22,878 nt of DNA from Nitrospirota bacterium (GTDB lineage: Bacteria; Nitrospirota; Thermodesulfovibrionia; Thermodesulfovibrionales; Dissulfurispiraceae). The notes beneath the pieces were generated by a model. That model was given only the letters and a program-made list of their open reading frames with translations, searched no databases and had not been told where the DNA came from. Both the position numbers and the translations under genes were made by a program. The DNA lies in the NCBI GenBank assembly GCA_040758355.1, contig JBFLWF010000033.1:1-22878 (forward strand), given 5' to 3'. Of the stretch, positions 5,251 to 12,744 are shown one piece after another (positions within the stretch are counted from its first letter, which is position 1; each line of letters begins with the position of its first letter).

Positions 5251-5722
5251 CTAATCTCCCTTCTTTTGATTAAAAGCTACGCAGTAAAACTTCCTTTCAT
5301 TAATAGCAGCGCCAAAGCATTTATTACATGATATGCATCTTGCCTTCTTCCTGTCGCCGGACTGCCATCTCTTTATAAGATCAGGTTCTGATATGAGCGG
5401 TCTGGAAATGCTGAAAAATTGCGCTGCTCCGTCGCGATAAATACTCTCCATCACATCAAGTGAACGGAGGCCGCCAACGAGGATCAAGGGACATTTCAGA
5501 TGATGTCTGAATTGCCCTGCATAATCCCTGAAATACGCCTCCAAATGAATAGCCGGTCAGTATAAGACCGACTCCGCCTTTTGCAAGGTCTCTGTAGATT
5601 TCAATCAACGGTTCGGTTACTTCACCGTTTTCACCAGCCATCCCTTCCCACGTGGCCGACCTCACAAAGTGGTTTCTTAGCTCCATGCTTCCAATAAATG
5701 CCTTCTGAAAAAGCTCGCTCAT
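5251..5722 (-). pseudogene. NADH:flavin oxidoreductase (Old Yellow Enzyme family) with a large internal deletion
   Basis: The N-terminus (LRNHFVRSATWEGMA...GGVGLILTG) is joined out of frame at about 5543 to the C-terminus (EAYF...PLILVGGLRS...SRPLISEPDL...CISCNKC). The central part of the TIM barrel is absent. Confidence 0.85.
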
Positions 5723-5748
5723 CGTTACTCCTCCTTTTAAGGTTAATA

Positions 5749-5784
5749 TTGACAAACAATATCAGCATCAGTATACTTTGTCAA
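5749..5784. promoter_or_regulatory. Overlapping divergent sigma70 promoters (hxlR and oxidoreductase)
   Basis: Plus strand: TTGACA(5749-5754)-17 nt-TATACT(5772-5777). Minus strand: TTGACA(5784-5779)-17 nt-TATTGT. Confidence 0.75.
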
Positions 5785-8287: not shown

Positions 8288-8404
8288 CTATTTCTTCTTG
8301 ATTTCAGGAGCACAACCACAACCGCATCCACAGCCGGATGTCTTGATCTCGCGCACAACATTGCCTAATGTCCCGATTTTCTTGTCTTTTTTGGTATCTG
8401 ACAT
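8288..8404 (-). CDS. 38-aa Cys-rich peptide MSDTKKDKKIGTLGNVVREIKTSGCGCGCGCAPEIKKK (putative metal-binding)
   Basis: Strong SD GGAGGTG; starts 2 nt after the upstream stop codon. Absent from the ORF track because it is under 60 aa. Confidence 0.7.
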   Translation of the reverse strand: MSDTKKDKKIGTLGNVVREIKTSGCGCGCGCAPEIKKK

Positions 8405-8406
8405 GC

Positions 8407-8589
8407 TTATTCACCTCCTTTCTTGCTTGCCTCTATAATCTTCTCCTCTATCCCTGCCATCTCGGCCTCAAGGCATCTCTTATACTCCTTTAATCTTTTA
8501 ATCTCTTCCTCTCTTGTTAAAACCACCCTCTTGAAAGTTGGCGGACATTCACAAGCCTCCTCAGTCCTTATAACGCAATATTGACACAT
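8407..8589 (-). CDS. 60-aa protein with CxxC and CxC motifs and a coiled coil (DUF5320-like)
   Basis: MCQYC...CECPPTFKR..LTREEEIKRLKEYKRCLEAEMAGIEEKI; SD GGAGGTG before ATG 8589. Confidence 0.75.
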   Translation of the reverse strand: MCQYCVIRTEEACECPPTFKRVVLTREEEIKRLKEYKRCLEAEMAGIEEKIIEASKKGGE

Positions 8590-8729: not shown

Positions 8730-9128
8730 TTACTCCTTCTCTTTTTCGATCTCCTTTATTCTCTTTTCCACCTCTTTTATTTCTTTCTCAAGCCTCTTTT
8801 TGTATTCCAATAAAGCCTCTCTCGTCTCCGAGATTTTTTTTCTTCTTCTACCGAGTTCACAACCGCAAGTGCAGACCTTTATCAGTTCCTGCTGGTATTT
8901 ATTCAATTTATCCTTATTTAATGAATAGTAGATGTGATAGCCCTTTCTTTCATCTGCAACCAACCCTGCCTGTTTCAGCACGCGAAGGTGCTGCGATACT
9001 GCAGATTGGCTGATGCCTAATGCCTCAGCCATCGTATTCACAGAAAGAGGCCCTGCCTTGAGCAGCTCAATAATTTTTACTCTGCTTTCTACAGAAATAA
9101 CCTTGAAAGACTCTGCCTCAAGCTTCAT
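8730..9128 (-). CDS. ArsR/SmtB-family metalloregulator with C-terminal CTCGC motif and coiled-coil tail
   Basis: FKVIS..SRVKIIELL, SQSAVSQHLRVLKQAGLV..ERKG..IYYSL; SD AAGGAG. Confidence 0.92.
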   Translation of the reverse strand: MKLEAESFKVISVESRVKIIELLKAGPLSVNTMAEALGISQSAVSQHLRVLKQAGLVADERKGYHIYYSLNKDKLNKYQQELIKVCTCGCELGRRRKKISETREALLEYKKRLEKEIKEVEKRIKEIEKEKE

Positions 9129-9185: not shown

Positions 9186-9266
9186 GAGATTTTTTAGGCG
9201 GCGGCGTTTCACGCCGTTAATCAACAACTACATATGCTATAATTCTAAAAAAGGAAGGCAAAACCT

Positions 9267-9638
9267 ATGGACTCGGTCGAGAAACTAAAAAATTTTCTGG
9301 ACAACGATCCCAATGTCATTTTTGCCCTTATTTTCGGCTCCGGCGCCACAGGGAAGCAGAAAAGAGGCAGCGACATCGATATAGGCATCTATTTTGTTAA
9401 ACCTCCAGAGGGGTTAGATTTGCTCGATCTCATAAATGTATTATCAGAGTTAACAGGCAGAGAAGTCGATGTTGTGGCATTGAACAATGCTTCTGCTCTG
9501 CTAAGACACCAGGTTATGAAGAACAGGGTTGCGCTCACAATTAAGGATATGGTGATTTACAGGAAATTCAGAGAAAAGACCATCTCTGATTATGATGAAT
9601 ACAAATATGTAGCGGGAATGAATGTTTATGATAGATAA
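9267..9638 (+). CDS. mntA: Minimal nucleotidyltransferase, MntA-type antitoxin (type VII TA)
   Basis: ALIFGS.ATG....SDIDIGI...EVDVVALN motif; overlaps the HEPN gene. Confidence 0.88.
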   Translation: MDSVEKLKNFLDNDPNVIFALIFGSGATGKQKRGSDIDIGIYFVKPPEGLDLLDLINVLSELTGREVDVVALNNASALLRHQVMKNRVALTIKDMVIYRKFREKTISDYDEYKYVAGMNVYDR

Positions 9639-10053
9639 GCCATTAGTTGAAAAGAAATTGCGACGAATTGAAGAGTTTCTGCGTGAGCTAAGAGACGTAG
9701 AAATAGGCACAATTGAAGAATTCAAAGAAAATATTATTACCAAAAGGTTTATCGAGAGGAATATCGAGCTCGCCATTGAGCAAATGATCGATGTCTGCAA
9801 GCATCTTGTCAGCGGATTGGATTTGAGCGAACCTGAAACATATTCAGAATGTTTTGACATACTTGCAGAGAAAGGCATCATTGTGAAAGAAAGTGTCGAT
9901 ACTTTCAAGTCAATGGTGAGATTCAGAAATATTCTTATTCACGCATATGAAGGTGTGGATGATTCCATTACCTATGGAGTTTATAAGCGGCGGCTCGAAG
10001 ACTTTAGAGCTTTTGTTAGAGAGGTAAGAGACTATTTGATTAAAGAAAAATAA
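9628..10053 (+). CDS. hepT: HEPN/DUF86 RNase toxin, HepT-type
   Basis: The Rx4HxY motif is present as FRNILIHAY. Confidence 0.9.
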   Translation: MIDKPLVEKKLRRIEEFLRELRDVEIGTIEEFKENIITKRFIERNIELAIEQMIDVCKHLVSGLDLSEPETYSECFDILAEKGIIVKESVDTFKSMVRFRNILIHAYEGVDDSITYGVYKRRLEDFRAFVREVRDYLIKEK

Positions 10054-10154
10054 ATGGACAGCCTCTTCCATCGATCATTTCTTTGTCTTTAACAACTCCG
10101 GCATCTTTGAATAATCAGTAATCCCAAGCCTATTGTCGCCTATTGTCACTTTAA

Positions 10155-10460
10155 TCAGCAGCAATTGCTGGATGCCGATTGAGATGGAGACCCTCCGCAG
10201 TCGCATGATGGCGGACCGCCCGTTATCATGCTGTTGATTATTGCCGCAGCGCAGCCCACTCCTGAATTCACGCTGATCGCACCGAATTCGCAGTTCAAGG
10301 CGCATGCGCCGCACTCCATGCAGAGGTCTTTATCCGTAATTGAGGCTTTTTTATTGTTCATGATAAACACACCGTGAGGGCAGACATCGATGCACTTTCC
10401 GCAGCCTGTGCATTTTTCAGGAGATAACTGTAGACTCGTTACATTCGTCAGGTATTTCAT
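10155..10460 (-). CDS. hgcB: Mercury methylation ferredoxin HgcB
   Basis: Two 4Fe-4S motifs (CTGCGKCIDVCP; CMECGACALNC), GVGCAAA, and C-terminal vicinal CC. ATGA overlap with hgcA. Confidence 0.96.
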   Translation of the reverse strand: MKYLTNVTSLQLSPEKCTGCGKCIDVCPHGVFIMNNKKASITDKDLCMECGACALNCEFGAISVNSGVGCAAAIINSMITGGPPSCDCGGSPSQSASSNCC

Positions 10461-11509
10461 AAAACCTTCCACTGATAAAGCTTGTGAACTAATAATAGTA
10501 TAACCGAAACAGCCGTAAATACTAAATATATTGGCAAACCTACTTTTAATTCCTTCCTGACACCTGACATGCTGGTAAAGGTAGTAGAGCCTGTGAATTG
10601 AAGCGCAATATAAGAGCTTGCAAGCGGAAAGAAAATGTAGGACGATACAGCAGGTAGAATGTCCAGACTCATCGTCTTTATTATGGCAGATGTGAATATC
10701 ATCCCTGCTATCCAGCCCTTCACAGCAAATGAGCGGAATGGGATAAAGGGAAGCAACACTGGAGTTATAAATGCACCACTGAGTATGCTTATCAATCCGA
10801 GCAACAAAAACGGCATGCCTCCTGACAGGGCATCTTTGAATAAAATGCCTGACGGTTGAAGACCAAAAAGCAGCAGAACAATCAGGGCAAAAAGCGGAAA
10901 TCTTTTCATGGCAGGATTAATCTCCATCGGAGTAAGAATAAGCCTGTCGAGCATCGTGAATTTTACAAGCCGCATTTCATCGCTCTTTTTATAACCCGCT
11001 TTTACATATTCAGGGATATCCTTTGCGTAAACAGGCCCAAAATAAACCCTGAAATCGGTTTGTTTCTGAACTGCCCTTGCATTTACGCCCACTGCCCCCA
11101 GTTGCGGGACTATTATTTTTCTGTGATTGACAACTTTGTGCAATTGGACTGCATTAATGCGTCCCACAAGTTCATCCGTGCCGAATGTCCCCTTTCCGGC
11201 AGCACACCAGACATTGATGCTTTTCGTATCGAGCACCAGTATCCATGCATTTAAGCCCTTTAATTCTTTTCTGAGTATGTCGAAACTGAGCTTATAATTT
11301 GCAGTGACAAAAACATCCGACTTGGCGTCCGGCTCGCCGAGGGCATAGAGTCCAGGTTCGACGGAATAGCGCATACGGAAATTACTGATGCGCGACCGGA
11401 TCGCTCCGATGTAGTCGTCCCTTGTCCAGTCCGATGTTGTCCTACGTACAGCAGGTTTTTGCGCTCCTGACGGTCAGCAAGAAATGGGAATATTAAGTGT
11501 ATTAGCCAT
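10457..11509 (-). CDS. hgcA: Mercury methylation corrinoid protein HgcA, 350 aa, with probable selenocysteine at codon 12
   Basis: Cap-helix NVWCAAGKG, TANYKLSFD, C-terminal TM domain with FTGSTTFTS.SGV. The frame extends from 11374 to ATG 11509 through a single TGA (11476-11474). Confidence 0.95.
11441..11476 (-). promoter_or_regulatory. UGA codon plus bacterial SECIS-like hairpin
   Basis: UGA, 18 nt, then stem CCUGC / loop UGUAC / GUAGG (11455-11441). G is the second loop base. Confidence 0.65.
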
Positions 11510-11625
11510 ATTTAATTTTAATATATCATGGCCTTTTTATTACAGTCTTGATTTTTTGCCAAATGGACAGACCTTTATACAAACTCCGCAGATGAGCGCA
11601 CCAGTGGCTATGATATAATTCTCCT

Positions 11626-12744
11626 ATGGACACCATCGAAAAACTAAAAATACTCTCAGATGACTCGCAGTACGACCTTGCGTGTGCATGCGGCACGAAC
11701 AAGGACGACCGCAGAAGGAGAGGGCTGGATGGAAAGTGGCTCTATCCCGTTACCCTTCCCAGAGGCGGATATTCAATACTTCTAAAAACACTTCTCTCCA
11801 ACGCATGTTCAAATGACTGCAAATACTGTCCTCTGCGCTCAGAGACAAATGTTCTGCGATGCACTCTCCAACCAGAGGAGGTGGCAAATATATTCATGGA
11901 ATATGTGAGGAGAAAAAAAGTTTTTGGTCTGTTTTTGAGTTCAGGTGTTATCGGCAATCCCGATTACACAATGGACAGGATAAACGCCGTTGCCCGCATA
12001 CTCAGATACAAACACAACTACAAAGGCTATATCCACTTGAAAGTAATTCCGGGTGTCTCTGACGCAGCCATAGAAGATTCCATTTCGCTGGCGAGTGCTG
12101 TTTCCCTCAATATCGAGACCCCGGGCAAGAAACGTTTCGATGTCCTTTCCAATAGAAAGGATTATATGAACGACATCATCCGTCACTGAAGCTGATGTCA
12201 AAGCTTACAGGTCAGGGCATGAGACATTCGAGGGTCAAATGCACAACGCAGTTTATTGTTGGAGCTTCGGATGAGACAGACTCGGAGATAATACAATATA
12301 TGTTCAATTTGTATAATCGCTTAAAATTCCAGCGAGTCTATTTTTCTGCCTATCAGAAAGGGCTCGGACATCCTGATATTCCGGGAGAGATGAGAGTGCT
12401 GTCCGGTCCAGATAGTATGTTCATGCGTGAACATCGTTTGTATCAGGTGGATTTTCTTGTCCGGAGATACGGTTTTTCGCAGGATGATATTCCCATAGAC
12501 ACATCCGGTAATCTGAGGCTTGATAAAGACCCGAAAGAGATGTGGGCAGAAAGCCATCCAGAATTTTATCCTGTCAGGATCAATACATCTGATAGAGAGG
12601 CATTGCTCAGGATTCCGGGAATTGGGCCAAAGACTTGGAATGATCCTGAAAATGAGGCGCGAAAAAAGAATCACCCGCCTTGAAGATTTAGGCATTAAAG
12701 GCAGGAGGCTCGAAAAGGCAAAACAGTATTTGATTTTTGAGTGA
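11626..12744 (+). pseudogene. Putative DNA modification/repair radical SAM protein (TIGR03916-like) with two frameshifts
   Basis: YDLACAC, LLKTLLSNACSNDCKYC, GLFLSSGV, YIHLK, TQFIVGA, REHRLYQVDFL, and HhH LLRIPGIGPK. Pieces are 11626-12189, 12195-12683 and about 12636-12744. Confidence 0.85.

Follow-up and report, generated by a model that had tools for sequence, protein, structure and literature searches.

In the accessible part of Haft and Gwadz (bioRxiv 10.1101/2022.07.06.499078), most HgcA proteins are described as selenoproteins with a CU motif ahead of the predicted start, and the 20 examples given there all contain PCUGP and measure 363-400 aa. A 2026 review (PMC13188914), in the portion available to us, also lists HgcA (NF040863) as a 'CU' selenoprotein family. 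Selenocysteine (Sec) in HgcA has been in print since 2022-2023, and the gene that we describe here is a further, compact example. HgcA of Pseudodesulfovibrio mercurii ND132 consists, according to the accessible text of two reports (PMC11588087, PMC7305189), of a corrinoid domain with a cap-helix Cys and a five-helix membrane domain. Lysates containing ND132 HgcAB produced in E. coli methylated Hg, the HgcA being a 37 kDa protein under the Cys93 numbering (PMC11588087, available part), and a double mutant of the Cys-Cys tail of HgcB lost 95% of the activity (PMC7305189, available part). Among the titles and abstract openings of the literature searched, which covers few subscription papers, there was neither an experimental test of Sec in HgcA nor a report of a leaderless Sec/SECIS arrangement.

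The window, that is, the whole stretch of 22,878 nt analysed here, comes from a Nitrospirota bacterium and contains an hgcA gene that shares several features with the forms in the accessible text of Haft and Gwadz: one UGA, in frame ahead of the annotated start and just after a Cys, a genome equipped with Sec machinery, an adjoining hgcB and homologues whose Cys aligns to the UGA (G030 and many Cys-Cys arms). The preliminary description of this DNA had mentioned that CU-type HgcA extensions were proposed before, as is indeed the case in that source. Unlike the 20 examples, the window protein has SCUPS and only 350 aa, although Fig. 5 and Fig. S7 of the same work may include such forms. Modest peculiarities set it apart: the motif SCUPS, an arm shortened by around 20 residues, the lack of a fallback start codon and a promoter of predicted leaderless type.

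The reading frame (Table 1) comprises 350 codons with a single internal TGA. Translation from ATG 11509 gives MANTLNIPISC-TGA (11476-11474)-PSGAQKPAVRRTTSDWTRDDYIGAIRSRISNFR-M46 (11374), continuing MRYSVEPG. The product is assigned to the HgcA family by its NF040863 score (397.5 bits against a cut-off of 275, the model beginning at residue 21), a cap helix that fits the pattern N[VI]WCA[AG]GK, five long predicted C-terminal membrane helices between residues 194 and 346, and the adjoining hgcB. It shares the domain layout of ND132 HgcA, and by homology to Cys93 of that protein (PMC7305189 and PMC11588087, accessible parts) Cys102 would be the cobalt ligand. HgcB likewise resembles its ND132 counterpart, as described in the available text of the same reports, with two CxxCxxCxxxCP motifs, a further conserved Cys and Cys-Cys at the C-terminus. 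The closest named HgcA relatives among the matches listed belong to Nitrospirota. In the PDB search, corrinoid iron-sulfur proteins were the only matches, with no HgcA structure among them.

Table 1. Features of the hgcAB locus in the window.
Feature	Position	Strand	Evidence or detail
Predicted promoter, leaderless geometry	11510..11543	-	TAAAAT at 11520-11515, 5 nt ahead of ATG; weak -35 GTAATA
hgcA, full frame, 350 aa with Sec12	10457..11509	-	sequence and NF040863 match; start ATG 11509-11507, stop 10459-10457
N-terminal arm, residues 1-20, predicted disordered	11450..11509	-	low pLDDT
Cys11 (TGC) and putative Sec12 (TGA) codons	11474..11479	-	sequence; TGY-TGA kept in 8 genomes
Hairpin CCUGC-UGUAC-GUAGG	11455-11441	-	stem-loop; 100% paired, 7/7 rows
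Ordered corrinoid-domain segment, residues 21-45, lost with a start at 11374	11375..11449	-	predicted strand 21-24 and helix 30-41
Cap-helix motif NVWCAAGK (residues 99-106) with Cys102	11192..11215	-	residues 99-105 invariant, 104 rows
hgcB, 101 aa, C-terminal Cys-Cys, no internal TGA	10155..10460	-	NF040864, 122.5 bits

Where does HgcA begin? A standard ORF scan calls a gene of 305 aa starting at 11374, so that the extension is missed, just as the preliminary description had anticipated. The frame from ATG 11509 with one stop is present as it had stated, and the stretch between the TGA and 11374 lacks not only ATG, as it had noted, but also GTG and TTG. An AlphaFold2 model computed with Cys in place of Sec (mean pLDDT 93) separates an arm of low confidence (48 at residues 1-10 and 57 at residues 11-20) from a region with values of 93-98 at residues 21-60, in which a strand (21-24) and a helix (30-41) are predicted. 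Across an alignment of 104 rows Arg45 is invariant, and Asp32 and Arg40 are at least 90% conserved. Because residues 21-45, including the invariant Arg45, are part of the fold, initiation at 11374 is implausible on structural grounds. No Shine-Dalgarno (SD) sequence was found ahead of Met46, and initiation there would leave 56 residues ahead of the cap Cys versus 92 in the annotated ND132 protein; in the accessible ND132 reports the annotated start also follows the UGA but, unlike Met46, still lies those 92 residues upstream. It is very likely that the true hgcA start is located 45 codons upstream of the one chosen by the gene caller and that one UGA is read as Sec. The annotation therefore loses 45 residues, part of the folded domain included, and surveys using hgcA as a marker need the corrected start.

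The in-frame TGA is not restricted to this contig. A scan of 317 genomes of the order for TGY-TGA-CCN followed by the same hairpin retrieved 8 genomes from 3 genera, all within the family of the window, and the reversed control pattern gave none among the matches listed. The HgcA proteins of these genomes are 73-96% identical. A protein search of 68 genomes of the family identified 30 hgcA genes; those of the same 8 genomes and of G083 carry the TGA. In addition, contigs from four out of four DNA runs, labelled biofilm, groundwater, hot spring and subsurface (one may be related to the source of the window), cover the codon with no change listed there, so that none of the codons that would have argued against Sec (TGC, TGT or TGG) was encountered; two of these contigs differ from the window at 16-24 other positions. 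RNA data contributed only one 212-nt contig of depth 2 inside hgcA.

The hairpin lies where it had been reported, beginning 18 nt past the UGA, with its loop at 23 nt. It agrees with the bacterial SECIS consensus model in the available part of PMC13188914 in having a 5-bp stem, a 5-nt loop placed 23 nt past the UGA, and GU as the second and third loop nucleotides. The energy limit of that model is -7.5 kcal/mol, compared with -4.6 to -5.7 for the bare window hairpin and -11.4 in a 60-nt context, the latter no better than shuffled sequences (z +0.22); a 47-nt segment folds otherwise. Since, among 4000 TGA sites drawn at random from the genome, 248 (6%) are followed by a stem-loop of -4.5 kcal/mol or better, against -4.6 for this one, the hairpin taken alone is weak evidence. 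What raises it above chance is its conservation across genomes. All five stem pairs hold in 7 aligned genomes, with one G-C replaced by G-U and neither compensatory change nor covariation among them, and four of the five hairpin codons are identical in all 7, compared with 11 of 113 comparable codons elsewhere in the gene (binomial p of about 4e-4, overstated because the sequences are related). The window hairpin is the weakest within its clade (-4.6 versus -6.6); a change at 11444 turns its G-U into G-C in three of the four DNA runs, the G-U being kept in the other. On a wider scale, we compared 198 distinct full-length rows, obtained from 247 loci by removing duplicates, truncated genes and rows that lack the cap-helix pattern. 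A SECIS-type hairpin of -4.4 or lower accompanies 31/31 UGA arms versus 6/82 other rows with TGA as the first upstream stop, the arms having been chosen by eye from the protein context and the cut-off set after seeing the data.

The genome, 99% complete, encodes the machinery for which the preliminary description had proposed a search, namely selA, selB and selD above their profile cut-offs and a tRNA-Sec(UCA) (selC). Its own selD carries an in-frame TGA, and so does a gene for an Fdh-type molybdoenzyme (fdhA), at CARL-U-H. Both have GUC-loop hairpins 17-19 nt past the UGA, with which the UGUAC loop of hgcA shares the G-U core. The proposed correspondence between UGA and Cys in homologues is found in G030, where TGT-TGT stands in register with the Cys-TGA of the window and IPLCCP aligns with IPISCUP, a direct Cys/Sec pair.

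The frame, the conserved TGA and hairpin, the Sec machinery and the implausible start at 11374 together make Sec12 very likely, and a Cys-Sec extension read by means of a SECIS-type hairpin, as originally suggested, agrees with all of them. In the mechanism that we consider highly probable from these sequence features, SelB would bind the hairpin located 18-32 nt downstream of the UGA and Sec would be inserted at codon 12. Were the UGA a true stop instead, it would close an 11-residue leader peptide, and ribosomes re-initiating at Met46 or a rare start codon would make a shorter HgcA. The weakness of the isolated hairpin and the retention of ATG 11374 in most relatives could be read in this way; nevertheless, we regard it as very improbable, because Met46 comes without an SD and after the invariant Arg45, inside the ordered region and too close to the cap Cys by comparison with ND132, and because the synonymous freeze falls exactly at the SECIS distance. 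It could also be thought that the TGA arose by misassembly, or as a nonsense mutation while the gene was decaying, given that broken genes occur nearby, one for a radical SAM protein with frameshifts and one for a flavin oxidoreductase that is split. This explanation, to which we assign almost no weight, is refuted by the same TGA in 7 further genomes of 3 genera and in the contigs of the four runs, and the remaining hgcAB is intact with all its key motifs. As a whole, we are fairly confident that the locus is best explained as an hgcA gene whose TGA is decoded as Sec, giving a predicted floppy Cys-Sec arm that would likely act as an accessory metal-binding tether.

Where the Sec state came from is less easily seen. 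The 8 rows with Cys-Sec-Pro-Ser (hereafter CUPS) form one branch with 96-97 support, whose sister branch consists of three HgcAs with a similarly short arm but without Cys or Sec. This clade is placed among mostly non-Sec HgcAs and far from the 19 Desulfobacterota-side Sec rows, which lie across a branch of 99 support. The 198-row tree, unrooted and with gain and loss counted alike, requires at least 10 changes of the Sec state, suggesting that the trait was gained or lost repeatedly among HgcA lineages. An independent gain in the CUPS clade was tested and not demonstrated: when the Nitrospirota-side Sec rows were constrained to group, AU tests left a single origin on that side unrejected (p 0.64 with 73 rows and a poor free search; p 0.14 with 34 rows). 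The Sec codon precedes the cap helix by 86-87 codons in the CUPS clade (87 before the cap-helix Asn in the window) and by 105-108 in most other Sec rows, 18 of the 19 Desulfobacterota-side ones among them; comparison of these sequences is consistent with the short arm being a deletion of around 20 residues from a shared layout. In this respect, the divergent HgcA of G083 has SC-U-PP, a short arm and TATACT 6 nt ahead of the ATG. Its hairpin is intermediate, with CCTGCT as in the window and GCTCAG as in the Desulfobacterota type, which fits shared ancestry.

CUPS is not a unique motif, since GCUPS, ACUPS and FCUPS occur elsewhere and CUP[PS] is also present in Desulfobacterota-side Sec rows. 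Neither the best 80 genome loci nor the best 80 metagenome loci listed contained further CUPS members outside the family. Inspection by eye of the 80 closest genome_contigs loci listed (sampled from L027-L123 and L192-L271) found a Cys-Sec arm in none. The published statement of a selenoprotein majority among HgcA does not fit this listed sample, which is rich in Nitrospirota and Spirochaetota and biased toward the query.

How hgcA translation starts bears on the role of selenium. No SD was found ahead of ATG 11509, and a sigma-70 scan did not report the TAAAAT site upstream of it. TANNNT is located 5-6 nt ahead of the ATG, without SD, in 7 of the 8 CUPS members, behind several different upstream sequences (in G002, TTGACA-18 nt-TACCAT-5 nt-ATG); in the remaining member a leader of 19 nt contains an SD. 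Across the genome TANNNT displays a modest peak at 5-7 nt (39, 47 and 43 of 964 ORFs; elsewhere mostly 12-34). The genome's own selD (G000:C13:52488, - strand) also shows TATAAT-5 nt-ATG without SD, with Sec at codon 14. The geometry in the clade and in selD, together with the genome-wide peak, leads us to predict that the hgcA mRNA is leaderless, a proposal that we somewhat favour. It is not a rule for genes with an early UGA: of the selD loci (30 fetched, 26 parsed) only 4, which share one selD subtype, had the TATAAT-type leaderless geometry, and 19 had an SD.

In the absence of any in-frame start codon between the UGA and the folded domain, a failure of Sec insertion would end translation after 11 residues, so that HgcA synthesis would need Sec insertion, and we consider it probable that selenium gates the supply of HgcA in this manner. 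Enzyme synthesis would be the most plausible route of selenium dependence and a firmer consequence than any metal role of the arm. Among the other seven CUPS members, an ATG, GTG or TTG stands in frame upstream of the cap helix in four, at a distance of 69-83 codons in three and of 65 codons in the last, and no SD accompanies any of them. The absence of a fallback is therefore not clade-wide. More tentatively, and with more doubt than confidence, we suggest a hard selenium gate in a subsurface Nitrospirota lineage: with its UGA at codon 12, a SECIS of little strength, an mRNA without leader and too short an arm for a fallback, the gene would give no HgcA unless Sec is available. If this were true, low selenium would stop methylmercury production at translation, apart from Hg-Se chemistry. 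Selenium removes Hg as HgSe; if readthrough were obligatory, it would thus have two opposing effects on methylmercury, one through the making of the enzyme and the other through removal of Hg.

What might the Cys-Sec arm do? By eye, the arms of the 30 hgcA genes of the family comprise 8 with Cys-Sec-Pro-Ser, one with Cys-Sec-Pro-Pro, 3 with Sec lacking an adjacent Cys, 14 with Cys only, 3 Cys-free and one cut by the contig end. The idea that the Sec or Cys state tracks the Sec machinery did not hold: in the first set of relatives selA was present in 25 of 26 HgcA carriers and selB in all 26. The ND132 HgcA made in E. coli presumably lacked the arm. Given Cys-free arms in the sister branch and the family, and an apparently armless but active ND132 protein, the predicted floppy Cys-Sec arm is likely an accessory, non-essential metal-binding tether. 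Relatives partly undercut the Hg-capture arm that the preliminary description had suggested. The Cys-Sec pair could hold Hg(II) or pass it to the corrinoid or to the Cys-Cys tail of HgcB, and the Cys-Cys arms of relatives would act as this pair would; by analogy with the HgcB tail we give such a metal-tethering role, the likeliest function of the pair, about an even chance.

On another reading, Sec is inserted but serves as a translational selenium gate or as a sensor of redox state or of another metal, not as a Hg site, and the native substrate need not be Hg. The predicted disorder of the arm, its variable or Cys-free state in close relatives, the UGA at codon 12 without a fallback start and the three family members with U but no adjacent Cys would all accord with this possibility, which we judge rather unlikely: a Cys stands beside the UGA in 8/8 CUPS members, and Cys-Cys or Cys-x-Cys is the commonest non-Sec state (14 of the 18 family rows that are non-Sec or edge-cut), pointing to a function as thiol/selenol ligand. 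The role of the arm could be approached through a natural series, formed by the compact 350-aa HgcA with its close Cys-Cys and Cys-free relatives.

The three genes with a TGA and no adjacent Cys (G033, G007 and G081; PGAI-U, PGTS-U and PGAT-U at L172, L183 and L185) represent a second type of Sec arm. Their TGA lies 106 codons before the cap helix and is followed by CCPGG or SCPGG, a stretch whose coding sequence forms a strong GGC-loop hairpin. No in-frame start occurs between the UGA and the core in G007 and G081.

hgcB directly follows hgcA, its ATG overlapping the hgcA stop (ATGA). Between hgcB and arsR, an mntA-hepT pair (type VII toxin-antitoxin; 9196-10154, + strand) is inserted. In the relatives G001 and G002 hgcB adjoins arsR, and contigs from two runs join 9195 to 10155. 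On the - strand, the ArsR-type regulator (8730-9128) is followed by two small Cys-rich ORFs of 60 aa (8407-8589; MCQYC...CECPP) and 38 aa (8288-8404; SGCGCGCGC), which have no Pfam match and are possible metal binders. The regulator and the 60-aa ORF are kept downstream of hgcAB in G001 and G002, and DNA of the 38-aa ORF is also matched in G002. Divergent from hgcA, a radical SAM gene (TIGR03916-like; 11626-12744, + strand) has two frameshifts relative to G002, reflecting either a pseudogene or assembly errors. Finally, two short ORFs at 5251-5755 (- strand) correspond to the beginning (59 positions) and the end (~53 positions) of PF00724, a flavin oxidoreductase family; the middle is absent, and the pair is likely a deleted remnant.
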